64,000 bases of DNA from Fistulifera solaris. Taxonomy: Eukaryota. Position 1 is the first letter of the stretch, and each line of letters opens with the position of its first letter. Location of the stretch: contig AP026126.1 in NCBI GenBank assembly GCA_030295235.1, positions 1,984,001 to 2,048,000 on the forward strand. Reading direction: 5' to 3'. Position numbers and translations under genes: made by a program. The notes under the pieces are model-generated. The model had not been told where the DNA came from and did not search any database. It saw nothing but the letters and a program-made list of their open reading frames with translations. Positions 40,585 to 63,546 of the stretch are shown in pieces.

Positions 40585-40744
40585 CTTGGTCTTGTCGCCG
40601 CAGTAGTGCGCAGTAAATGCAGGAACCAGGAACGTCCCTGTTCTTCACGCGTTGTTTTCCGTCAAGAGGAAAAAAGAAAGACAAGCAACAGACAGTGGCT
40701 CTCTTGTTTATTGAATCTGTCGATGTTGCAATATCTATCACACA

Positions 40745-42843
40745 ATGACATCATTACAGGACAAAGATGTTCCTTTATCTGCTCAGGAAGAAGCTTTCTT
40801 GTACGAAAGGGCGCTTTTTGACTATCGAAATAGTTTACAGACGACGACGACGACGACGACAACCCCCAATGACACAACAACAAAGGAAGATCGATTTTGC
40901 CAACAATTTACCGCTCGCGTCAATTTAATGTGTGCTGTACACAACAATCCTGTCTTTCGAGAGCGTACTATACAAGATTTAGAAGAAGAATCGGATTCTT
41001 ATGCGCAATTAATCGAATCTATCTTTGTTCAGAAATCACGTCGTCGACGAAATCAAACACAACTCACTCTTGTTTCGGTCGATGTAGACGCCTTTTTTGA
41101 AATGTATCCTGAATGCGTGCGAAAGTCTGATGATAATGATGATGACGCAAGTGAGGATGAAGTAGAAGAAATTACCGAACAGCCCGAAGTTGTCCTTAGG
41201 AAAGGCAGCAAAGCGAAACGCATTGCCGTCGACAAATCACATCTTCCCGTCAACAACTACCACCAAAGACCTGCTAACAATCCCTATACGTCACGGCAAC
41301 ACACCGACAGATATTTGCAAGTAACCAATCCTTCCTTGCCTTCCATCGAGCATTCTGTATCTCATCAGCAACATCCTGGATCTTGGCAAGATCCGACGCT
41401 CAAGACGAATAGCACTAGTGGCAGTATTCACAATCCATTTCAAACGGCTCGCGATGTATCATTAGCGTCGGAGCCGTCCAATAAGGCTTCGACTCATCAC
41501 CAAGCGCAACATGCAAACAGCAATAACAACAACAACAACAATGCTCCTATTCACACGTTACCACAGCACACACATGTCAACCATCATCGCACCCATAATC
41601 CCTATACGCCGCACAACAATTTTCAAACCACGACTACTTCCTGGGACCAACCTCCGTACGCCCCATCCGCAAGCGCTCCGGCTGGTGCATACAATCCCTA
41701 TCAACACAATTGTCCCAGTGTGTCATCGCCTCCGCCACCACCACCCATGGAAATACGGGATTCCCTCAAACGGAAATTTGTACCACCCGTCAAGAGAGGA
41801 TTGGCGAAAACTGTACCCAGCGTATCGGATGGGGCGGCGGCCGCTAAATTCAGTAAAGACATCAAGCCAGACACCGAAAGCGATGATGATTTGCCGGAAG
41901 AACTCAAACGATTTGGTAAAGAATTGGTCGAAAAGATTGAATCCGAAATTATGGATCGTGGTGATCCGGTCACATTTGATGACATTGCCGGTCTGTTGGA
42001 TGCGAAACAAACGGTCCAAGAAGTGGTTTGCTGGCCCATGAAACGGCCCGATTTGTTTACGGGTCTCCGACGGGCACCCAATGGTTTGTTGTTGTACGGA
42101 CCTCCCGGTACCGGGAAAACGTTGATTGGCAAGGCCATTGCTCACGAATCGGGGGCTACATTCTTTCGATTTCCAGTTCTTCCTTGACCAGTAAATGGAT
42201 TGGTGAGGGTGAAAAGTTAGTTCGAACGTTGTTTGCTGTGGCGGGTGTACGTGAACCGTCCGTGGTGTTCATTGACGAAATTGACTCGTTGTTGACACAG
42301 CGCAAGTCCGACGAGAACGAAGCATCGCGACGCATCAAGACGGAATTTTTGGTGCAACTGGACGGAACAGGAACGAGCGGACGGGGCCGCGTATTGATCA
42401 TTGGCGCCACCAACCGTCCTCAAGAACTGGATGAGGCCGCTCGACGTCGCTTTACGAAACGATTGTATATTCCACTTCCAAATGAAGATGATCGAGAGCG
42501 GTTGTTACGTGTGCTACTGGACAACAACAAGCACAGTCTGGTGGACAGTGAGATTGTGAAACTGGCCAAAGACACGGACGGTTTCAGTGGAGCTGATCTG
42601 AAAGCATTGTCGACGGATGCCGCTATGGGACCGATTCGTGAGTTAGGTTCTCGTGCGCTGGATGTGAACATAGATGACATTCCTCCGATTGCGTACAAGC
42701 ACTTCCGGCAGGCCTTGCGTGGAATCAAACCCAGCGTGGCACCGTCTGATTTGATCCAGTATGAAGAATGGGACAAAACTTACGGCAGTAATCGAAGTCA
42801 TGGAACGGAGGGCCACCATGACGAAAGTGATGACGAACAATAA
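40745..42843 (+). CDS. FIGNL1: Fidgetin-like 1 AAA+ ATPase; frameshift near 42165
   Basis: [58 protein letters not shown] (Walker A), [32 protein letters not shown] (Walker B) and [17 protein letters not shown]. Confidence 0.9.
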
Positions 42844-50033: not shown

Positions 50034-50690
50034 AGCTAGATCTTGCAAAATGAACTCGATAACATGAAACACAAGAAATCTTCTTCTTTTAGAGTCTAAA
50101 CGTTTTATTTCTATTCAAATTTAGTCTGCTGCATTTGAATTGTCTCAATCAAGGTCACGTGATGAACGATACGGTGCGCAGTGTTTCTTGACAGTAAGAA
50201 TGCGTTTGTACAATGAAAACACCTGTAGAGGTCAACCTTGTTCCCGTCATTTCAGTAAGCGAAAGAGCTGGAGACTAGCAAATGCAAGTGCCTGGACTAG
50301 TTTGCCTACTTTCATTTCAGTTTGAATTTCCTTGTGAATTCTTTCATAAAGAAGGACAATAATTGGAGATTGAACGAGTTATATCATGGTGCAAGTCTCA
50401 ACAAAGGAATACCTTGTACCGCGGATACGGCTCGAGGCATGACTCCACTGAGATGAAGAGCAGGCAGCACGCACGTCAATTCTCACGAAATCGTCATCCC
50501 GCCGTCCGCCATTTCACCCGTTCTCCACCCAATATTTTCTCGCGACGCCAAAAAACACTCCTTGTATTTTTTCTTTCCGCTTCCTTTATTGCCTTTATTT
50601 AGTATCAAACCGTTTCACCACCAAGTCAACGAATCTTTCTTTCATTTTTCACATTCTAAACTTTACATCCTATTAATTAATTAATTAATT

Positions 50691-51634
50691 ATGTCACGTC
50701 CCGAACTAACCGGACCGGCCGCACATTTCTACAATGAAAAAGAGGCGCGCAAATATGACTCGTCGTCTCGCATGGTCGGCGTGCAACGTGAAATCACGGA
50801 ACGAGCTATTGAATTGTTGCGGCTTGATCATTCACAACCGGCCTACGTGTTAGATATCGGTTGTGGCTCGGGTCTTTCTGGACAGGTATTAGAAGAAAAA
50901 GGTCATTTCTGGTTGGGTTGTGATGTTTCTCGCGACATGTTGCTGGTGGCGCAAGAGCGCATGCACAATCAAGCCGAAAACGACGACGACGACGATGATG
51001 ATGATGAAAGCATGGACGGTGATTCGAATCATAACATCAAAAAACAACGAAAGTCTACGGGAGATCTCATGCACCATGATATGGGGACAGGATTGCCATT
51101 CCGACCGGCAACATTTGATGCATGCATCTCGATTTCGGCCCTACAATGGCTTTGCTATTCCAACTCGGCGCAACAGAATCCGCGTAGACGTTTGACCCGA
51201 TTCTTTTCGTCATTGTATACAGTTCTCAAACGCGGTGGAAGAGCTGTGTTACAATTCTACCCCGAGACGGCCGAACAGGCTGTCCTCATTACCGAATGCG
51301 CTACAAGAGTAGGCTTCGCTGGTGGTGTCGTTGTGGATTATCCCAACTCGGCGAAAGCCAAGAAACATTATCTAGTGCTCAGTTTCGATCGAAATTCCGA
51401 ACAAAAGCGCAAAGCAGCGCTCAAAGATGGTTTGAGCTCGGCGGCAGAAGAGCAACAATCAGTTCTCGTGACAGGCGCGAGTCGAGAAGGAACCAAAAAA
51501 GCTCCCATTCGCAAAAAGAAGGGTGTGAAAACAAAGGAATGGATTGTTCACAAAAGGAGACTCAGCGCAAGAAAGGAAAAGCGGTTCGTCCCGACACTAA
51601 ATACACAGCTCGTCGGCGTCCTACCAAATTCTAG
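50691..51634 (+). CDS. BUD23: 18S rRNA guanine-N7 methyltransferase; frameshift near 51550
   Basis: MSRPE..GPA..FYNEKEARKY, LDIGCGSGLSG, DMGTGLPFRPATFDACISISALQWLC, LQFYPE, GFAGGVVVDYPNSAKAKK, and C-terminal KKE.QRKKGK.VRPDTKYTARRR in the shifted frame. Confidence 0.95.
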
Positions 51635-51721
51635 GCCTTACTATTTTTTTTACTCCGTATTACTTCCATGTCCGAGTACTTTTTATCTTGAATGATTCTA
51701 ATGGATTATTCTTTTCGTACG

Positions 51722-52397
51722 TCATGATGCGCTTTCTTCCACTTCTGTCAGGAGTAATGGTTGAACATCTGGGCGATCCACTTCTACATCCATCATCTTG
51801 CAAAAATGAGTCCGTTATGAGTTTAAATGAGGACGAGCCATATAGTTTGCCACAAACAAACTGTAATCAACACTAAACACTTACCATGGCCAAATGAAAA
51901 TCGTGTCGCGACAAGCCACCCAGAACCAACGTATGACAACTGACGGAACTGACCACTTGCCAATTTTTCTTGACAATTTTCCGTTCCAGTGACAGTACTA
52001 ATGGGAAATGATTGTTGATTTGTGCCACAGCAGCTATTTTGTGAAGAAATCGTGCTCCAGAAAGATAATCGGGATGAATGAAGTGTCTTGTCAACGAAAA
52101 TGGTGCATTTGGGTCTTCTGCATTCATTTCGAACGTCCATTGTGAATTAATTGTTGACTTTAACATGGTGGCGTCGGTCATAGTCAGAGGCTTACCTCCT
52201 TGTCCGTAAGGATCGCATTTTTGATTAGGCCGCTTGGCCAAAGGATCGTATTTTGGCTTGGATGTCGAAGAAAGCCATCGTTGGCAAACGAATGATGAGG
52301 AACAATTTTGATGCTTCGTTGTGTGTCGGAATGCATTACTAATAGCTATTCTCCGCGCGATCTGCCCACGCAAGCTCTCTTTCACTTTTATTATCAT
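51722..52397 (-). CDS. PCBD: Pterin-4-alpha-carbinolamine dehydratase-like, organelle-targeted; intron 51884-51797
   Basis: KCDPYGQGGKPL...W...LTRHF.HPDY..GARFLHKIAAVAQINNHFP...HTLVLGGLSRHDFHLAM|MMD. The GTAAGT...GCAAG intron gives a 25-codon last exon. Confidence 0.8.
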
Positions 52398-52711
52398 TCT
52401 CTGTTGCTAGCTTGAAGTTATAAAGGTTGGCGAATATGAATGAAAGTTTTATTGCTTGTCAATGGCTATTTCGCAAACTGCGTCGCTTTATCCATCCATA
52501 CCTCATACCTCATGACTGAATTCCAGTCTTGGCGAAAACGGACAACACTATGAGGCTTACCTGGTAGACTTGCAGGAGACGGCGTTAAAATTCTGCATTG
52601 TCGTGGACGCTACGTAGAATCTTGTACTGGAGGCAGAATTTTAACGTCCTTCTAAAAAAAAGCGAATATTTCGAGCTGATTTCGCTCGTCACACAAAAAA
52701 ATAATTTTGGC

Positions 52712-53424
52712 ACACGACGATCTGAAAGCGGAATTCATGTCTCTTTGCACGCAAGCCTTTGGACCCAAATCTGTTCGCAATGAGCCTACCATTCACACAT
52801 TTGGCAACAGCAACAACAGTACACAGGTTCAAGAGCTTCGAGGAGATGTTTCGGCCTATGGCTTTTGGAATGAGAGACGAACGACCATTTTCGATGTCCG
52901 AGTTACTGATACCGACGCACCGTCATACAGAAACCGTGACCCAATTAAGGTTCTGGCTTCTCAAGAGCGTGAAAAGCGTAGCATGTACGGACCCCCTTGC
53001 CACGAACGCAGACGAGACTTCACTCCCCTGGTCTTTTCCATTGACGGAATGATGGGACAACAGGCTATTTCAGCATCGAGACAGCTTGCAAGAAAACTTC
53101 AGCCGGAAGTGGAACAAGCCATACTCCGAGATCTGTGGCTTCATCCGGGCGCGCATGAGTCTTTCCCTGGTCAGGTCAGTTAGTATGCTTCTGCGAAATC
53201 CAAGAGAAGGAATGCCAAAACGGAATCCCCCTCATTGGGAAACGGGCTCGGGACTGGCCCTCTACTAGCGCACTAAGGCTAGGGAGTTAGAACCAAAGCT
53301 GACTCATTGAAGTGTCAGACTGAAATATATGTGAATGAAAAGTGGAAAATTCAGTCGAATGTCAAGATTAGATTCTGACAATTAAAAAATTAGGAAAAAA
53401 AGATCTTAGCAAAAAAAAAAAAAA
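52712..53424 (+). mobile_element. 5'-truncated non-LTR retrotransposon carrying a restriction-like endonuclease domain (CRE/Ambal-like), with 3' UTR, poly(A) and target-site duplication
   Basis: HDDLKAEF...EP...LRGDVSAYGFW...FDVRVTDTDAPSY...EREKRSMY...C.....FTPLVFSIDGMMG, then (frameshift near 53095) KWNKPYSEICGFIRARMSLSLVRS. Stop at 53268, A14 tract at 53411-53424, and aattttggc duplicated at 52703-52711 and 53423-53431. Confidence 0.88.
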
Positions 53425-53783
53425 TTTTGGCCGAAGCAAACAACAAACAAACAACACAAACCGCAGAACCATAAAATCATTTCTCGTGACTGAAACTCAG
53501 TCTTGGACAAGTGCTGCTTACACTTTGGAGGATGGTTCAATCAAGTCCTTAACTCTAATGATCCAAGAATATATGTCACGAGCGACGCGTGCTCGCGTGT
53601 GCTTCCTTTGGGCCACCACGCCACCAGGAACGAGGCACGAAGATTTCGTACTGCACGTTTTTCATTCGTCCGCCTTCATTCATTGCAACTGCAATTGAAT
53701 CCTTTTCATTTCTCGTGGTGTTTTCGTATCATTGTTTGCAAAGCGTTTTTCATTTCATAGGCACGAAACCCAGTTCCTTGCAA

Positions 53784-56138
53784 ATGTCAAAAGAAGAAAA
53801 CATAGCAGCTCAACTTCTTTTGTCGTCAGAAAAAGAAGGAGATACGAAACAACATCGCGAGCTTTTCAAAGATTGCGCTCTCGTAGAAATCATTCATCTT
53901 CACGACTGCTTACGAGGATCATTAAAGGCACTGGAACACGATGTACAACAACTAGCCAAAGCGGTGCATTCTGGTTCCGAAGAACAGCAACGAATGCTAG
54001 AAAAGAAAGTCGCAGGGAGATTTCAAGTGATTTGGAGTGTCTTTCGAGCACATTCTTCTGCAGAAGATGAATTTATCTGGCCGGCTTTACAGCGAAAAAC
54101 ACAAGGACGAATCCAGGGACACAAACACAAAGGGAAGGACGCTATTATTGAGCAAGAAGAATACGAAGAAGATCACGCGGATGAGGAACGTATGTTTTCC
54201 GAGATGGACCGATTGCTCACACGATTGAGGCAATATCTACTCAAACCGGATTTGTCACAGCCCAACAATAACCAGCACACCGAACAAGTTATAACGGCTA
54301 TCGCTCAACACACGTCGACACTATCACAGCATTTAATGCATCATTTAAAAAAAGAAGAAACACAATGCATGCCGCTGGTTGCGCAACACTTGTCAAAAGA
54401 GGAAATTCACGAACTCGTGGGGCAGATCATGGGCAAGCGCTCCGCCGATACGATTGCACAAATTATGACAATGGCGGTTCAAAGTTTGAACGAAGCAGAT
54501 CGGATCGAAATGGTCAAGTACATGAAGCAAGCCATGTCAGGCACGTTCTTTGATCGGTGGCTTCTCATGTCGGGATGGATGTCACACGATGCACCAAATG
54601 CGGATATTGCGCCCAACGCGAGACCCGAACAACCAGGAAATGACGAACTTGCTGTGAATGAAGTTCAGGCGGATGAGGCACTAAATCGTAATTTGAAACG
54701 ACGTGCAGATGCTGAGGAACAGGATGACACCAAGCGTGCGCGAATCGTTCCTTTGGAGGATGAAGAACTAGAGGAAGCTAATAATTCCGGAGGATGGACA
54801 AGTCCGGAAGAACTGGAAAAGTTCATTCGTGCCATTGCTACAAATCCAGCGTTAACGGCAGCGCAGAAGAACTCGACTATACAAGGCCTGCGTGATAGTG
54901 TTTGGAAAAGTAACAAGAAACATCGGGGATCTCGTCCAGCGGCCCCGACGGTTGTTAATTCCACTACCACCAGTTTTCACCACCCTCGTTTTCCATCGGC
55001 TGAACCTGGTCGCCCAGCTCTAGTCACTGCTTCCTCCACGCGGCGAGTGACACCGCCATCCATGTATTTCAAGAAGAACAAGGCAGGGAAAGTCGTAGTG
55101 ATATCGCCTAATGACTTGCCTGCATCGTCGTCCGAACCCCTGCCTCTGTTTTCGGCGTCAGAGATGGCACCTACATATCACGATGGTGCTGCAGCATCTG
55201 TGCTGGGATGTCCACATTACGCTCGCGCATGCAAACTGCGGCATCCCAATTCAGGGCGCTTGTACACGTGTCGATTATGTTGCGAACAGCAGCGGGAATT
55301 GGCCAGTGGTGATCCGGACGACCCACTTGACCGTTATGCCGTTACGGAAGTCTTGTGTATGCAGTGCCATGCGCTACAACCTGCTGGAGATCGTTGTATC
55401 AATGCGGAATGTGAATCAAGAGGAAAACCATTCTCCAAGTATTTTTGCCGCATCTGTCATTTGTACGATGATGCCGCCAATAAACATATCTTTCACTGTC
55501 CCTATTGCAATTGCTGCCGTTTAGGAAAAGGTCTTGGAATCGACTTCCGGCACTGCATGGTACGTAATGCGATTGCAAAAATTAAGTTTATGATTTTCGG
55601 TAATGCTCACAAAATTCTTGCCTGTTTTCTTCGCAGCGGTGTAACGCCTGTGTATCGCTCGCTGACGATGACCACCAGTGCATCCCTCAGAAATTGCAAG
55701 GAAGCTGTCCAATTTGTCATGAAAGTCTCTTTCAATCGACTGAGCCTTTACGTGGTCTGAAATGCGGCCACGTAATGCACATGTCATGTTTCACTGAGTA
55801 CCGCAGGGGGCACTCGTACACTTGTCCGTTGTGCATGCGGTCTATGGACGATATGAAAGGTAAGCTTTCACAAAGTGAATTGGATGATCTCCTACGTGAC
55901 GCACCTCACAAGTCATTCGTGCCTGTTCTTTGAAGACTATTTCGCCATGCTGGATGCAGCCGTGCGCATGCAACCCATGCCGGCAGCCTATCTGACAACG
56001 AAGAGCAACATTTATTGTCAAGATTGCGGGAAAACTGGACAAGTACAGTATCACTTTGTGGGTCTGAAATGTTCCGATTGTGGAAGCTACAATACGAGAG
56101 AGATGGGACGAGTTGACTGTTCCGATGAGGTGCGGTAG
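53784..56138 (+). CDS. Hemerythrin + CHY/CTCHY zinc finger + RING + zinc-ribbon E3 ligase (BRUTUS/HRZ-like architecture); introns 55560-55636 and 55860-55935
   Basis: HHE/hemerythrin: HLHDCLR...AHSSAEDEFIWPAL...EDHADEE...HHLKKEETQCMPL. CHY: GCPHYARACKL...YTCRLCC...CMQC...YFCRICHLYDD...FHCPYCNCCRLGKGLGIDFRHCM|RCNAC. RING: CPICHE...KCGHVMHMSC...CPLC. Ribbon: IYCQDCG...YHFVGLKCSDCGSYNT. Confidence 0.9.
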
Positions 56139-56363: not shown

Positions 56364-58783
56364 TTACTCAGCGTCGTCGTCATCTGGTCCCCCGTCAAAG
56401 ATCATTGGAAGGTCGCCATCCGATTCGTCACTCCCCTCGGCTGATTTCATTTCGCATGGTGGAGCACATGGGATCGGCACCTCCTTTTTCGATTCGGCCG
56501 TCTCACCGCGAGAGCCACCAGGGACTACCTCAGCTACACTCAACTTTGCTCTTCCAGCACGAGGGACAAGCTCAGCTACGATGTCTTTTTGTCGTCTATC
56601 ACCGTCATTGGGAGTTGGTGCTGAAAACAAGGTTTCCTCTTGAGTTATCAGCTTTGACTTTTTGCTAGTCCCCCCTTCGTCACTCTCTGGCGTTGATCCT
56701 ACCCGTTTTAATGATAAGTTATCTGGTTGCGCCGTGTCCGAATTCATGTGCTCCAAAATTGCCCGGCTGAGCATTGAAAACTCAGCATACATGTTTTCAT
56801 CAACTGGTCTGGATCGAACAACGGACAAAGCTGGAATCCGCGCAAACATTGCCGATTCGGAGGTGCGCGATCCACCATATGCAGCTTCCGTTCCAGGGAC
56901 GCCTATTCTTTCGGGCCCATGGACAGCAAGTGCGGCTGTCCTCAAGACATCATGGCTGAGGGAACTGGAGGCCCCGTCTCTCCACGGAACCTGCGCGCAT
57001 GCAGATGCCAGCTTCAAAATGTCGCTACTTGTTGTTTCCATTTGAGATAACTTCCCTGATTTTAATTGTTCCAAATATTCAAATGTGATTTTCTCGATCA
57101 AATTGCGCATGTTGAGCGATAAGTATTCCCCCGCTACAAGGACAGTTGACGCGAGACATCGTGCTGAAGCAGTCAAAATGCCGTATCGATCGAACACAGA
57201 TCCCCATTCTCCCAAGTCTTTCCCATTGACATTCAGATCATTTTTACTCAATTTCAACGATTCCAAGAGAAAGCCAGAAACATACTGAACGGATTGTTCC
57301 AAATCTCTGGAACATTCCTGTGATTTTTGCCGTTGGACAGCGTCGATTGTGGATCTGGTCCACACGCTAAGATTGCTGATCGAAACGAGTTGATGGCGGC
57401 AATTCGTGCTGGAGTCGACCGGTGCAGCCAACGTCGTCGCGAACCTGTATATTGCATGGCACTGGAGGGGTCCACCACTTGACGAACCGTAGCAGAACTG
57501 GTCGTTCGAAGGCCAGCATGAGCGATTTGGTAAATCTTTCTGGTGTAGGAAAGTGGTGGCGCAATTTCGAGCAATCCATTCAACAACAAAAGCCCGCGAA
57601 TAAACACCACATTTGCTACATCCCGAGCTAGAACAATCGTAGTAAGCAATCCCCCATCCAAATACTCGGCACGTAGCCGATTGTTGGTACCATGAAAGGA
57701 AGTCTCCGCCGTCAAAGGGAATGTCATCATTGTTTCCACGACTTGTAATATCAAACCAACGTTGAATTCGACAACAGTAGATTCCTCTTGCCGTTGCAAC
57801 AGTCGTACACCCAACACGACCAAACCGTGAACTAAACTCAGAAAACGATGCCCACGCTTTGTGTTATCATTTGTCTCACTCAATAGACTAATCCACTTAT
57901 CTAACAACCTTTCCAACAATGAATCTTGTTTCAGATGTTCTTCGAGGATGTTACTGTTTCGGTTCGGTTGCACCGTCGGGACAGTGCGTACAAGTACAAG
58001 CATTAAGCCGGACATGACCCCGTCCAAACGAGGCCCCGAAGGAAGAGCTGTCAACAATCGTGCCACCGCTACTTGCACATTTGACTGGTTGCTGTAAAAC
58101 AATGCTTTCCATGCCCATTCACTGAGGTTGTTGAGCAGATCCGTGCTCCGTGCTAATTTGATACCGAACAAAGTGACGAGCGCTGCCGCTGATTGCAAAA
58201 TGGCTTCTCTCATGAAAGATGTTTCCTCATCGTCGTTGTCGTCGTCGTCCTCGTCATCATCACTCGTATTAGCCTTTGTTTCTACAGTCGCTAATTGCTG
58301 CAACAACTGCTTTCCTGAAGTTCCCATGATTTCGAACGCTGCGATAGTACTTGTATCAGGATTTTGTGCAATACGAATCGTCTGACAGATAGTATTAATG
58401 AGATCCGCCGCTAACGCGACAAGAAGACTGGACTGATGATTGGAATAGGAAGCAAGAATACGTAGAATAGCCGATACAATCAATTGAGCATCGACCGTCG
58501 GTCCTTGTGACGAGCGTTCGTCGGATTTTGACGACTTCTTTTCTCCTCGTTTTGTACTTTGCGTGGAAGCATTCTCCAAAACCGTTTGTGCATCATGGTG
58601 ATTTTGATAAAATAAAGTGCCTCTCTGACTTATAGTCGAAATGAGGAGTTGCAATGCATCCAACACTGTTTCATAAAGGTCACAATCCTCGATATTGTTT
58701 TCGTACAATCGTAATAAACGAAGCAATTCCTGTCCCGTCGGCAAGGTGTCTGTGGGGAGAGGAGGCTGAATCATTTTCTTCAT
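56364..58783 (-). CDS. Helical-repeat protein with an acidic tail, possibly RIX1/PELP1-like; frameshift near 57330
   Basis: Two overlapping long ORFs (509 aa and 355 aa) rich in amphipathic helices. The FARIPAL segment and terminal DLPMIFDGGPDDDD resemble plant/algal RIX1/PELP1 homologues. Family assignment is tentative. Confidence 0.55.
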
Positions 58784-59393
58784 AGAGGCCTGTGTGAGAC
58801 AAACATATCCTTTAGTTGCAAGTTATCCAGAAAATGTTGTTTCCCCCAGAACATGCGAAAGAAAATAAGCACGGGTGGAGGAGGACGCGAAAGAAACGCG
58901 AAAAGTGTGCACGAAAATTTTGCCAGAAGTGGCTAAACTTGGATTCCGGATTCCTTCCTTATCGATGAGCGTCGAGCGTAGAGCCTCTCTAGACCTAGAG
59001 CCTTAGAGCTTGGAGCTTAGTCTGATAAAATGCGACTACCAATTATCGCGCCTATTGCTACTAAATATTACCAAGGCAGCCATTTTCATTATCAACAAAG
59101 ATATGGTACCATCAATGGATTCAAAACGTCGAAAAGAGGAGAATTTTGGCGACGTTCGAAAATCGACGTAAGTTTCACGTACCCGTAGCTCTCGCAGGGA
59201 AATTACCGACAAAGGGCAACCCGGATTTCGTGTGTTTCGCGGTTGACCTGTTTCGACCTGATGATCTCCGCACGCGAGGACAATCGGACGAAGATACGGA
59301 AGACATTTTGCAGCTTTCATTCCAGCATCATAAAATTCGACTTGTTTTACGTTAAGCAGCTTCAAGCGACCTCCTTTCACCTAACAAACCAGA

Positions 59394-62300
59394 ATGGCGC
59401 TTTCTTGTTCTCCCGGAGAGGCTGTTTATACACTTTTCGGAGCCGGAGTCGTCGTACATCATGACCTTCAATTGCAACAATACTGCGTGCGTTTATGGCG
59501 AATTCCTGGAAAATCTATTGCGTCTTCCGCCGTAGCGTATCTACAAGCTTCAGCAATCATCGAGAAGATTCCGGTAGCTCCCGGAATGTTTACGAAACTC
59601 TTACGATCCTCGAAATCCGTTGAAGAAGAAGAAGAAGAAAATAGCAAGGAAGTACTCGTGCATTGTTACTATTCCACAAACAAAACTTTTCTCGTTTCGG
59701 AGGTTCTTCCTGAAAGCAACGAGAAAGAAGAATCGGTAGAGTCATCTTTAGCGCTGCATCGCAAACAATCATTACCGAAGCATGTCGCCGTGCTGCAATC
59801 TGTCACATCCCAACAACTGCAACCAGCACCGGCCGCTCAATTTTATCCTTTCCTGGAAACTCTCATGAAGAGGGCGGATGATACTGTCGTCATGACACGA
59901 AATATGTTACAAAGTGAACAAACGCAGCAATTTCTGCAACACACGGACCGCGTCACGTCACAAGTGGTGCAAGCCACCTCATTGTCCGCCAACGACGTGA
60001 AGAATGTCGCACCTGCGGCGGAACAAGGATTGCATCAAGTAGTCCAGCTGATGAAAGACGAATCGTTGACGGAATTGTTAAAAACGTGTAAGAGTCGTTT
60101 GGATGAACTCGTACGCAGTACCGATATGTCCAAGACGACGCAACAAGTTCTTGAAAAGACGGGTATCCGCATTCAATTGCCCGAAAAGGCTTCCTTACAA
60201 ACTACGCGAAAGGCCGCGTTGGAGGCACTGAATGATTGGTTGGAACGTCATAACAACGGCGAAGACTGGCATGCGGTTCGGGAGGAACTCGCGACGCAAT
60301 TTTCCACCACATTTGATTCACTCGCGGCAGCGGCACAAATCCGATCGTCAATTGCAACAAAGGTTTGGTGAGATCTCCGACAAGACGGCCCTGTGGCAAC
60401 AAGCCACGGGGAGATTATTACAAACACGGTCGGCTACTCTCTTTTTTGGAGGGCGCCACTCGGCTACAAAATCGTGCGGTGGCCTTATTTCGGCAAGCCA
60501 ATTGGGCCGGAGATATTGGTTCACATTTCACCAAGTCATTCACTGAGGGAGATGCTGCGATGGCTCGTGTCAAATCTTTGGAGCTGGGTGAGGCATTAAA
60601 AAGTAGATTGGTCCATGCCATTGAGCTGAGAAGTGAATCGATTGGCGGATTGGATGGGATTATCGCGGGCGCACTGTCGACTCTCAACGACAAAGGAAAT
60701 GGCGATATTCAAGCATTACTTTCGAATTTGCAGAAACAAGCTAGCTCGGCAACAAGCAACGCGCACGAAACGTTAATTACTGTATTGTCGTCGCAGAGCG
60801 AGTACCGCGAAGCTGCTCTGATGCGACTCGAGAGGGTTTTGTGCTCGCTTTCCAGTCATTTGGAAGGAACACCGCAAGAAATTGCCGCAATGGCTCGTGG
60901 GAAAGGAGGAACGCATAAGATTTTTGAGCCAATTGCCAAACAGGCCATGCAGCAGATCAACCATCATTTGGATGCAGCTGAAACGCAGATCAAAGATCCA
61001 ACCATATTGCACGTGTTACAAAAAGTCAGGAAGATTATGTCGGGAGAGATGTCTCCTGACGATGTAATGGATGAAATCGTATCCGTTTTGAACGATGACA
61101 AAGTAGTAGCAGCCAGCGAGACGATTGTGCAGCATAGTGAGCATGTTCTCGATGCACTTGAGGGCGTTTCGGGTAACAAAGCCGTGGCCGATGCTCTACA
61201 AATAGCTGAGCGTGCTGGAATTACAAAAGATTCAGTGCTACAGGAGTTTGGGAAGCTTAATGTGGATGAATTGATTGGGACGGCCGGAACTGCTGTAACG
61301 GATGAGAAAGCTCGGCAACAACTACTGTCATCGGCCACAGATGCTGCTTTGGATTTTGCACTTCGCGTCTTGCCGTCCATGCCGATACCGCCTTTTGAGG
61401 GAGTGAAAGACGGGCTTATTTATCACATATCCAATCTATCAATGAAAGGATTCCGGGTCAAAAAGAAGATATTCATATTGTTTTAGCAGGAATGCGAGCG
61501 ACGAAAAGAGACCATAGCTCTTCCAGATTGAATACGGAAGATAACAGCTTTTTCTCCTTTCGAACTTACCAAGGACGACTCCATGGAAGTTCAAGAATTA
61601 GAAACTCAAGTCAAACCAACGGAGCTACTGATCATAGATATACGAGAGATATCCGCAGTTTTTGATAATGCTGAGTGGAGTTTTGAACAAACATACCTCC
61701 CTTACCTTAAGGGAGATGGGAAAGTCGATGTGAAGATGAGTGGTGGGGCGATACGACTACAATTTGAATTACGATGTCGTCGAAAGCAAACCACAGAAGG
61801 CGCTGAGTTTTGGGAGCCCGTTTTATGCTTACATGATAGGGAGTGCACTATATCGGATGTTGACATGAATTTGCAGGGTGATAGTAGACTGGCATGGATC
61901 ATCAACAAAGCTGCAGGAATTTTTCGAGTTCCACTTAGAGATTATGTCGTACGAACAATCATTCGTATTATCGCCGATCGAAGCGGGTGGATTCTTAAGC
62001 GTCTGAATGATGTTTTGTCGCCTTACTGGGACGTTATTCTTCGTACAGCGAAGTTGAACATGGTACGTTGTTCATCATCATACCATGGTAGTGACTTGCC
62101 TCTTCTTTGTCTCATAAAACGCTTTAAATGAAGAACGACCTGGTTGAGGCGGACGAACATGTAGTTGTAGAAGAAGTAAGGAGTCAAGCTACAGTTATTG
62201 AACTCGTTTGGCGTGAGCGGCTTCCTCTAGGCATGAACTTACTAACAAACGATCCTTCTGGTTTACTAAAAGTGGTGGATTTTCCTCGTGGAAGTCAGGC

Positions 62301-63546
62301 ACGTTCGGTTTGCGAGAAGCGGAACCTCAATCCTGCTTTGTTTGAGGGGGCGACCATCATTGCTGTGAATGGTACGGAATTCGTAAGCGCTAGTGATGCC
62401 TTTGATGCGCTTCGTGAACCAGCACGGCCGAAAACAATCCGCTTTGAACTGGCTGAAAGCGAAGAAGCTGATAAGCTGAGACTATTCGTCGAGGCGTCGA
62501 GAACAGAAAAGGTATCCGACGGGTACATTCGGGGGTCACCGCAACGCAATTTAGAATATCGTATTGTTGAATTCATGTCGGATCGTGAACTGGGAATTGA
62601 ATTCGGAACTTCGGTGGACAATGCATGCCTTGTCGTGACTTCCTTTCTAGAGAGCCCAGATGGTATTGTTTACGAAGCTGAAAAATCTGGAAAGATTAAA
62701 ACCAACGACATCCTTACTCATATAAACGGGATTTTTGTGGCCGGAAAAGAAGGACCTCGAAAGGCTATAACTTTACTTGAGAAGAGCACGACGCAACAAG
62801 CCATGACGCTCCAGTTTTCGGACCCGTACATGCACACAGTTTACGCACAAAAAGTGAGCAAAGTTCCAGGAGCTGATTGCAACGGAGGGCCCGACGAGCT
62901 TGTACTCGAAGAAGTTTTGCGCAAAGATGGTTCCAAGCGGATAGCTGTCACTGGATTTAAAGAAGTAAGCGGAATGGCCGAAGGTGGCGGTATCATGCTC
63001 GGAGATTATTTAGTTTTTGTGAATGGGTTTCCAGTTGGTGCTGGTTGTCGATGGCTCGGCGTAGAACACAAGCCTGCTCTTGATGACGTTCTTGAGATGC
63101 TGCAAGAAGTATCGGCCTATCCCATGGGTCTCACATTCGCACGACCGAAACAAGGGAGTTCATTGTGGGAAGCCAGCTTTGGTGAGACGCATCTGCTTCA
63201 GGACGACGAAGCTGAAACAATTTGTATAACTGCGGAAAGCAGTGACAGAATTGGTTGTCTTTTCGATCAGGTAGAATCTGGGGATATCATGGTTCGCGAC
63301 TTCCACGGCGTTCCCGGACTTTTTCATCGCGCGTTCGTTTCATGTATTGAGAATGATCTCCAACTTCCTCTGTCAATCGAGTTCTTAAACTATGAGCTTG
63401 TCCCTTCTTATGCTACCGTCGACATTGTCAGAAGTGCTTTGAAGCGCGGTTGGAACTCTGATAGCAGCGTCACTATGCAAGTTTGCAACGACCGCGTGAA
63501 AGATTGGTTGTACTCCTCTGGCGAAGAAGGGAGCACGCAACGGTAA
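59394..63546 (+). CDS. Large protein with an N-terminal beta module, a long helical region, a TULIP/HAM1-C-like domain and several PDZ-like domains; intron 62063-62133; frameshifts near 60340, 60440 and 61460
   Basis: Consecutive ORFs in one orientation. LPSMPIPPFEG...YHISNL...ISAVFDNAEWSFEQTYLPYLKGDGKVDV...LAWIINK suggests a BPI/TULIP-like fold. PLGMNL...LKVVDF...IIAVNG...LREPARPKTIRF and ELGIEF...AEKSGKIKTNDILTHING are PDZ-like. Confidence 0.65.

Follow-up and report, generated by a model that had tools for sequence, protein, structure and literature searches.

A 64,000-nucleotide stretch of Fistulifera solaris contig AP026126.1 (hereafter the window, whose own numbering is used for all coordinates) carries on its + strand, at positions 53784-56138, a gene in which a hemerythrin-like (Hr) domain is joined to a ubiquitin-ligase module made up of CHY, CTCHY and RING zinc fingers and a zinc ribbon. 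The spliced coding sequence comprises 2202 nucleotides without an internal stop codon, and encodes in three exons a protein of 733 residues. It begins with an ATG at 53784, with no in-frame ATG further upstream in a frame that is open from 53562, and ends with a TAG stop codon at 56136-56138. The gene and its protein are organized as follows:

53784..55559, + strand: exon 1, residues 1-592, one open frame with the Hr domain, linker, pre-CHY motif, CHY and the first part of CTCHY
53865..54569, + strand: Hr domain, residues 28-262, a four-helix core and three more helices as in the Hr domains of BRUTUS (BTS)
54573..54788, + strand: linker, residues 264-335, acidic and predicted to be disordered, with a predicted local distance difference test score (pLDDT) below 50 and conservation near zero
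54789..54923, + strand: pre-CHY motif, residues 336-380, ..ELEKFIRAIATNP..QKNSTIQGLRDSVWKSN, conserved
55044..55193, + strand: segment before CHY, residues 421-470, ..PLFSASEMAPTYHDG, conserved, with a predicted beta-hairpin at 427-440
55209..55418, + strand: CHY zinc finger, residues 476-545, with changed ligand positions (Pfam E=5.3e-13)
55560..55636, + strand: intron 1, 77 nucleotides, GTACGT..CAG, inside CTCHY (HCM/RCN, the slash marking the junction)
55637..55859, + strand: exon 2, residues 593-666 and the first base of codon 667, with the end of CTCHY and the RING-H2
55706..55834, + strand: RING-H2, residues 616-658, with C616, C619, C635, H637, H640, C643, C655 and C658
55860..55935, + strand: intron 2, 76 nucleotides, GTAAGC..AAG, between RING and zinc ribbon
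55936..56138, + strand: exon 3, residues 667-733 and the stop codon, with the zinc ribbon

Exon 1 translates to a sequence that matches the NCBI entry 'hypothetical protein FisN_4Lh293 [Fistulifera solaris]' (P0001) at 100% identity, in agreement with an earlier interpretation of the letters alone (the sequence-only reading), which had taken the source for a probable diatom. The same reading had described a gene with two GT-AG introns, which start and stop codons, splicing and the uninterrupted coding sequence bear out. Its view that the introns join the Hr part to the CHY part requires correction, as both parts lie in exon 1 and the introns fall within the ligase module. Both splice junctions are located in highly conserved, ungapped stretches (HCM/RCNACVSL and DMK/DYFAMLD) of a MAFFT alignment with 120 listed homologues. 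In the deposited GenBank model of 690 residues, intron 1 is removed and intron 2 is retained, such that the C-terminus reads ...DDMKGKLSQSELDDLLRDAPHKSFVPVL, and the deposited protein lacks the zinc ribbon because intron 2 is read through. Homologues, including the MMETSP transcript open reading frame (ORF) P0047, run on as EDMKEYFAMLDAAVRMQPMP into the zinc ribbon, thus matching the spliced model. The corrected gene model, which is new here, gives the zinc ribbon back to the F. solaris protein.

The protein belongs to a conserved diatom family. A search for homologues of similar length returned 323 proteins at E<=0.001 among 8000 candidates scored, and the family counts given here derive from the 120 listed, which exhibit 38-100% identity. 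Named homologues among the matches listed come from Cylindrotheca, Epithemia, Thalassiosira, Skeletonema, Nitzschia and a Bacillariaceae metagenome-assembled genome, and an incomplete protein of Laminaria digitata that contains a CHY finger (P0304) points tentatively to the brown algae. Both the Hr domain and the C-terminal module are covered at >93% in 93 of the 120 listed homologues, and both halves are present in six MMETSP transcript ORFs of type:complete from other diatoms (P0047, P0067, P0077, P0078, P0081 and P0117). In F. solaris itself, Hr and CHY share a single uninterrupted exon of 592 codons, and the fusion is independent of any splice. Transcripts in which the Hr and RING parts form separate genes had been named in advance as the finding that would count against a fusion; the exon and the six complete ORFs contradict that possibility.

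The Hr domain carries the ligand pattern H40; H90xxxE94; H131xxxE135; H187xxxE191. The translated protein and the alignment with 120 homologues thereby substantiate the intact H...HxxxE...H...HxxxE arrangement that had been perceived in the raw sequence. The residues H38, H40, H90, E94, H131, E135, H183, H187 and E191 are identical in 108 of the 108 family members that cover them; the remaining 12 of the 120 listed members are truncated at the N-terminus at some ligand positions, with zero substitutions anywhere. This family-wide invariance of a candidate ligand set is new here. An AlphaFold2 model of residues 1-270, built on an alignment of 86 sequences, predicts a helical bundle (mean pLDDT 82.3, predicted template modelling score 0.72), in which helices 31-63, 66-106, 124-153 and 162-202 hold one ligand set each and are followed by three further helices up to residue 263. 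The order H-HxxxE-H(xxxE)-HxxxE, with one set per helix, is that of the ligands in a hemerythrin four-helix bundle. In a protein atlas search, all 30 of 30 matches belonged to the Hemerythrin set, with a top score of 0.91. An Hr-only profile of 25 sequences, searched over 1.84 billion representatives, retrieved 385 proteins at E<=1e-3, of which 222 lie at <=1e-10 and 86 at <=1e-30; among 23 of these relatives submitted to Pfam, 14 exceeded the cut-off of PF01814, and most carried CHY, RING or ribbon. The Hr domain most likely holds a diiron centre.

The relation of this domain to plant proteins was explored with a hidden Markov model (HMM) built from the diatom Hr (residues 28-262) and run over 88 long, BTS-like proteins. 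It matches Hr in 87 of the 88, and the third Hr domain (Hr3) is the top scorer in 84 of 85 BTS-like proteins of 1100-1350 residues, with median scores of 94 bits for Hr3, 36 for Hr1 and 21 for Hr2. A BLASTP comparison with Ricinus BRUTUS gives the same ranking (Hr3, residues 666-881, 9e-22; Hr2, 9e-13; Hr1, 5e-12) and a match of 5e-32 in the CHY region, and Ceratopteris BRUTUS yields a single colinear high-scoring pair, in which residues 41-592 of the query align with 591-1123 at E=8e-54, from Hr3 into CHY/CTCHY and up to the end of exon 1. On these similarities the single diatom Hr is assigned, for the first time here, to the Hr3 position of BRUTUS, and the diatom protein as a whole is homologous to the C-terminal ~60% of plant BRUTUS/HRZ, comprising Hr3, pre-CHY motif, CHY, CTCHY, RING and ribbon.

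A quick IQ-TREE phylogeny points in the same direction. It was built on the Hr segments of 16 long proteins (of the 88) together with 20 of 121 diatom-family rows, with 66 rows and 233 of 697 columns in all; Hr2 was not matched in one protein, and an Hr1 segment of insufficient length was left out. The unrooted tree has the form ((diatom,Hr3),(Hr1,Hr2)), and the branch that splits it is supported by a Shimodaira-Hasegawa-like approximate likelihood ratio (SH-aLRT) of 97, the branches being long. Each group lies on one side of a branch, with SH-aLRT values of 100 for the diatom group, 96 for Hr3, 100 for Hr2 and 71 for Hr1. The tree places the diatom Hr with Hr3, while its lack of a root gives no direction, such that an ancestral and a truncated origin of the one-Hr form would both be compatible with it.

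The second link to BTS is the pre-CHY motif, which is predicted to form two helices (341-352 and 359-382, pLDDT about 95). At i-E<=1e-3, its diatom HMM recovers the motif in 81 of the 88 long proteins, e.g. NQKELEAAIRRVSSDSSLDPRRKAYLIQNLMTSRW, and the motif (ELExxIRxV..LDPxxK..QNLxxSRW / ELEKLIRAIATNP..QKNTTIQGLRDSVWKSN) is common to the diatom family and BTS, which is new here. The distance from the motif to GCxHY differs, with a median of 35 residues in the long proteins and about 97 in the diatom protein. Hr3 and the pre-CHY motif together, through the Hr tree and the motif HMM, link the protein with BTS in preference to plain RCHY1. The BRUTUS/HRZ homology asserted by the sequence-only reading is therefore upheld by the colinear match, the prevalence of Hr3 among the best scores and the common motif. 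Folding of the Hr part (residues 25-265) against the pre-CHY and CHY part (residues 335-592) with no alignment gave a score of 0.35 (runs 0.00, 0.41 and 0.35) versus 0.00 for the best of three controls, with a contact agreement between runs of at least 0% and a partner pLDDT of at least 67, which lends weak support to a contact between the two parts. For calibration, 51 of 78 solved complexes attain the docking mark, as do 2 of 108 mismatched pairs; at scores <=0.60, just 5 of those 78 complexes attain it, together with all 4 passing mismatches (of 180).

The long proteins include further noteworthy forms. P0125, P0133 and P0153 (1221-1341 residues) share 31-35% identity with the diatom protein over 42% of the query, closer than typical plant BTS; their second Hr is unusually strong (47-51 bits), and they may bridge the one-Hr and three-Hr forms. 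P0122, a 2790-residue 'zinc finger protein BRUTUS-like' of Scenedesmus with Hemerythrin, CHY, RING and ribbon, is a far larger fusion than plant BTS, and its precomputed Pfam column also contains PF24681, PF13415, PF24981 and PF13637.

The ligase module is recognizable in all its parts. In addition to zf-CHY, Pfam detects zf-RING_2 (exon 2, 2.2e-9) and zinc_ribbon_6 (exon 3, 8.1e-24) in the spliced protein, and a profile of 86 family members matches the RCHY1/Pirh2 structures 7ynx (5.3e-42, from CHY to RING), 2k2c (1.6e-28) and 2k2d (4.8e-18). Each of the eight RING-H2 ligands is retained in 112-115 of the 120 homologues listed, and each of the zinc ribbon cysteines C694, C697, C712 and C715 in 107-111, the remainder being almost all gaps in either case. 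The remaining ligands of CHY, CTCHY, RING and ribbon are conserved, apart from four positions in the CHY finger. There, RHPNSG stands in place of the ..CC.. of BTS/RCHY1, CRLCC (residues 496-500, nucleotides 55269-55283) stands where BTS/RCHY1 have CRxCH, and no His occupies the DHxxDR position. The sequence-only reading had thus rightly noticed CRLCC, which is one of four changed Cys/His positions, and its complete Pirh2/RCHY1-type module holds for the presence of the four parts and not for a canonical CHY. The occupancy of these positions in the diatom family, versus the 88 long BTS-like proteins (of which one, P0121, is itself diatom-like), is as follows:

..CC.. position: in the diatom family any residue followed by S (S 119 and T 1 of 120), after the invariant H487-P488; in the long proteins CC in 85 of 88
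last position of CRxCH: in the diatom family C 108, S 8 and A 4 of 120; in the long proteins H in 85 of 88
His position of DHxxDR: in the diatom family E, S, A, P or D and then P (120); in the long proteins H in 79 of 88

Human RCHY1 has C, C, H and H at the four positions in a profile alignment. The diatom family also carries an insert of 5-12 residues after CRLC, and residues 501-510 are predicted at lower confidence (pLDDT 67). C500 is exchanged for Ser or Ala in 12 lineages and C483 for Val, Ala or Ile in 10, and this replaceability across lineages argues that neither is an essential ligand. The family-wide remodelling of the CHY finger is a feature that is new here. The four positions presumably constitute one zinc site of Pirh2; if so, the diatom module would bind eight zinc ions, and not the nine cited in the literature.

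Comparison with known systems places the protein between several of them. As in BTS/BTSL/HRZ, the domain order is the same from Hr3 on, with RING-H2 and zinc ribbon intact, and the protein combines an RCHY1-homologous module, an Hr homologous to that of BTS and the pre-CHY motif. In contrast to BTS/HRZ, it has one Hr (residues 28-262) instead of three and 733 residues instead of 1200-1400, such that the N-terminal domain of more than 950 residues with three Hr, which characterizes BTS/BTSL, is not found; nor, if the four changed positions are taken as ligands, are all the zinc-coordinating Cys/His of Pirh2, which Matthiadis and Long 2016 and a 2019 review describe as conserved in BTS/HRZ, retained in the diatom family, whose CHY is without the CC found in 85 of the 88 long proteins and without the two H found in 85 and 79 of them. 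The single Hr is not due to a truncated model, as there is no upstream in-frame ATG and family members of 650-900 residues begin with the same domain. The CHY-CTCHY-RING-zinc ribbon module is also that of animal RCHY1/Pirh2 and plant MIEL1. RCHY1, however, lacks both Hr and pre-CHY motif, the human protein starting about 19 residues before CHY in the alignment, and it has neither the insert after CRLC nor the loss of four Cys/His positions. A stand-alone RCHY1/Pirh2 spans ~260 residues, whereas 475 residues, including Hr, precede the diatom ligase module.

FBXL5, the mammalian iron and oxygen sensor, likewise has one Hr-like domain, located at its N-terminus and coupled to a ubiquitin-ligase function; among PDB sequences it alone is matched meaningfully by the Hr profile (E=0.018), and it ranks among the top structural matches. 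Its ligase part, unlike that of the diatom protein, is an F-box/leucine-rich repeat adaptor of a cullin ligase and is unrelated to CHY-RING, and a Pfam scan of the diatom protein finds neither F-box nor leucine-rich repeats. FBXL5 is thus an analogue in logic and not an orthologue.

The published record links a protein of this type to iron. In Smith et al. 2016 (PMC5156380), Phatr3_J12097 of Phaeodactylum tricornutum, described as hemerythrin-like with a CHY finger and thus similar by description, is among the genes most highly induced by low iron, and a role like that of the iron-binding regulators of animals and plants is suggested; the S1 dataset of the same paper records it as LoFe-UP and as a KOG1940 Zn-finger protein. 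The novelty implied by the sequence-only reading was therefore overstated, the idea of an iron sensor having been raised in that paper in 2016. BTS is itself induced by low iron, according to Matthiadis and Long 2016, which resembles the behaviour reported for Phatr3_J12097. According to Pullin et al. 2025, who cite Davidi et al. 2023 on this point, iron deficiency induces the algal homologues of Chlamydomonas, Dunaliella 'and diatoms'; the terms BTS, BRUTUS, hemerythrin and Cre05.g248550 do not appear in the text and one supplement of Davidi et al. 2023. A 2021 review, 'Iron metabolism strategies in diatoms', does not contain the words sensor, sensing, hemerythrin, ubiquitin or transcription factor. 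Another P. tricornutum gene annotated as 'hemerythrin domain-containing', Phatr3_J48164, is distinct from J12097 and is listed as over-expressed under low salinity in the oval morphotype (PMC12113381).

The plant literature confines the Hr and CHY-RING combination to the green lineage and a few red algae, always with two or three Hr. Matthiadis and Long 2016, who used Pfam and SMART, report the pairing of HHE with CHY-RING as restricted to land plants, green algae and three of the red algae; the absence of diatoms from this survey fits the sub-threshold Pfam score of the diatom Hr (see below). Pullin et al. 2025 report that each green-lineage protein they examined contains three Hr-like sequences, packed as one rigid domain, and the three packed subdomains are said there to act together. 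BTSL is described as having two iron-binding Hr and one degenerate Hr in the same paper and in a 2019 review.

The surroundings of the gene contain nothing iron-related among the neighbouring ORFs, as judged from the ORF list and Pfam, and no inverted repeats of at least 10 nucleotides occur in 53240-53790. The neighbouring features are:

40715-42843, + strand: AAA ATPase with AAA_lid_3 and Vps4 C-terminal domain, in overlapping frames 40715-42184 and 41983-42840
50685-51692, + strand: class I methyltransferase ORF (Methyltransf_11, 8.2e-12)
51876-52406, - strand: weak pterin-4a-carbinolamine-dehydratase-like ORF (25.0 bits, just below the cut-off of 26)
52680-53183, + strand: open frame of 167 codons with no Pfam match
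56364-58822, - strand: two long overlapping ORFs of 499 and 522 codons with no Pfam match, converging on the 3' end of the ligase gene
62128-63543: PDZ protein, among the neighbour ORFs scanned with Pfam

The split AAA/Vps4-like frames suggest an intron or a frameshift, and the two minus-strand ORFs at 56364-58822 are probably one intron-containing gene. The 52680-53183 frame is followed by an A-rich tract that ends in a run of ~14 A at 53408-53424, just upstream of the ligase gene; the frame and tract together (52680-53430) may represent the 3' end of a neighbouring gene or the remnant of a mobile element.

Gene model, domain order, homology to Hr3 of BTS, ligand invariance and an intact RING-H2 and ribbon are direct observations, and they lead to a proposal for how the protein may work. 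By analogy with BTS/HRZ and FBXL5, the four-helix bundle would bind two Fe via H40, H90/E94, H131/E135 and H187/E191. Occupancy and oxidation of the Fe centre would alter the conformation or stability of the protein and, with it, the output of the ligase module, which in turn would ubiquitinate one or more regulators of the low-iron response and damp that response when iron returns. The protein would accordingly be a RING ligase that responds to iron (and oxygen), resembles the C-terminal part of BTS in its architecture and is controlled by its diiron centre, and we favour this account with some reserve. We infer metal binding, ligase activity, the direction of regulation, the substrates and the coupling of the diiron state to output from the analogy, in which a role as iron sensor is plausible and was proposed in 2016 for Phatr3_J12097.

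Several results weigh against an iron-responsive ligase. The Pfam Hemerythrin family PF01814 scores 18.3 bits (E=0.0034) on the Hr domain, under the gathering cut-off of 25.3, and its entry appears in the precomputed Pfam column of just 3 of the 120 listed family members. The domain scan that had been recommended for the spliced protein thus recovers CHY, RING and ribbon and leaves the Hr call to other evidence. A Foldseek search of the PDB gives 3cax first (E=9e-3), followed by FBXL5 hemerythrin chains at E=1.4e-2 to 8.4e-2 with template modelling scores to the target of 0.62-0.66; zero matches reach E<=0.001 and designed helical bundles are interspersed among them, which makes the fold search consistent with hemerythrin but not decisive. 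The Hr-only profile finds four PDB sequences at E<=10, with FBXL5 Hr in the first two places (E=0.018 and 0.02), a marginal similarity. In the FBXL5 match, FraHssAeDeF is paired with FKMHEQIENEY and HLlaHLeKEE with FLPHMKEEEE (HxxxE of helices 2 and 4), the FBXL5 strings being, we assume, its HxxxE ligand motifs. CACGTG, an iron-responsive motif of P. tricornutum promoters as we take it, is not found between 50156 and the coding sequence, and occurs 13 times in the window versus 15.7 expected. That motif is not in the text of Smith et al. 2016. Orthology with Phatr3_J12097 is presumed from its description and not from sequence, and no named P. tricornutum protein occurs among the matches listed in the near-length, long and short homologue searches. 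The full-text literature, from which subscription journals are largely absent, yielded no functional study (metal binding, ligase activity or phenotype) of the diatom family. BTS without any HHE domain still complements bts-1, as stated by Matthiadis and Long 2016, which indicates that the plant Hr region is dispensable for basic ligase function. By comparison with the packed plant domains, a one-Hr protein may behave differently from its three-Hr relatives, and with four changed Cys/His in CHY, the ligase module may also differ in structure.

Three other explanations compete with the iron-responsive ligase. That the fusion is an artefact of annotation or assembly, with hemerythrin and RCHY1-like genes separate in vivo, is hardly credible. 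A search for shorter proteins (140 at E<=0.001) did return many with Hr only or CHY/RING only, such as a 245-residue 'Hemerythrin-like domain-containing' protein of Pseudo-nitzschia multistriata (P0302), but these short matches lie mostly on contigs of a few kb (1-5 kb), where proteins are often truncated, and the 592-codon exon, the 93 members covering both ends and the complete MMETSP ORFs among them speak for a true fusion. It is also improbable that the protein is a housekeeping or quality-control ligase like Pirh2/MIEL1, whose helical bundle is structural or binds substrates and remains metal-free like the degenerate second Hr of BTSL. The sub-threshold Pfam score would suit such a ligase, as would the sufficiency of the ligase module alone in plants (Matthiadis and Long 2016) and the non-iron roles of Pirh2, e.g. 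recognition of Ala-tail degrons; against it, the seven canonical ligands and two further His are invariant in all 108 members, degenerate Hr motifs lack the iron-binding residues that the diatom Hr retains, and the best match is Hr3 and not the degenerate Hr2.

A sensor of oxygen, peroxide or nitric oxide deserves somewhat more credit, while remaining unlikely: here the diiron centre would be constitutively loaded, and its oxidation state rather than its occupancy would gate the ligase. Hr-like domains are redox active and the ligand set is of the Hr-like diiron type; moreover, Pullin et al. 2025 argue that BTS/L is not activated by iron binding unless oxidation accompanies it, and FBXL5 responds to iron and O2 alike. 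On the other side, the sole expression evidence for a similar diatom gene is specific to iron (LoFe-UP), and the same type of domain is linked to iron homeostasis in plants and animals. The iron-availability and redox readings are not mutually exclusive.

Iron limits diatom growth across large areas of the ocean, and we know of no iron-sensing step described in diatoms. The protein reported here is a real, conserved candidate of moderate novelty: being conserved across diatoms, with an intact set of diiron ligands and a ligase, it offers a concrete target for knockout and biochemistry. As its Hr domain falls below the Pfam cut-off, surveys based on domain libraries would miss the diatom proteins, and a natural version with one Hr supplies a simpler protein in which to study diiron control of a RING ligase. 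A bolder and quite tentative extension of the iron-responsive ligase is that the iron sensor of diatoms is a minimal, one-Hr BRUTUS, in which diiron loading would switch a remodelled CHY-RING, with eight and not nine zinc sites, onto the activators of the low-iron regulon (ISIPs, flavodoxin). If this were true, a single Hr beside the ligase would be a sufficient, and possibly ancestral, sensing unit, since this Hr is the counterpart of Hr3 of BTS; Hr1 and Hr2 would then be later additions in plants, or the diatom gene a truncated acquisition from algae.

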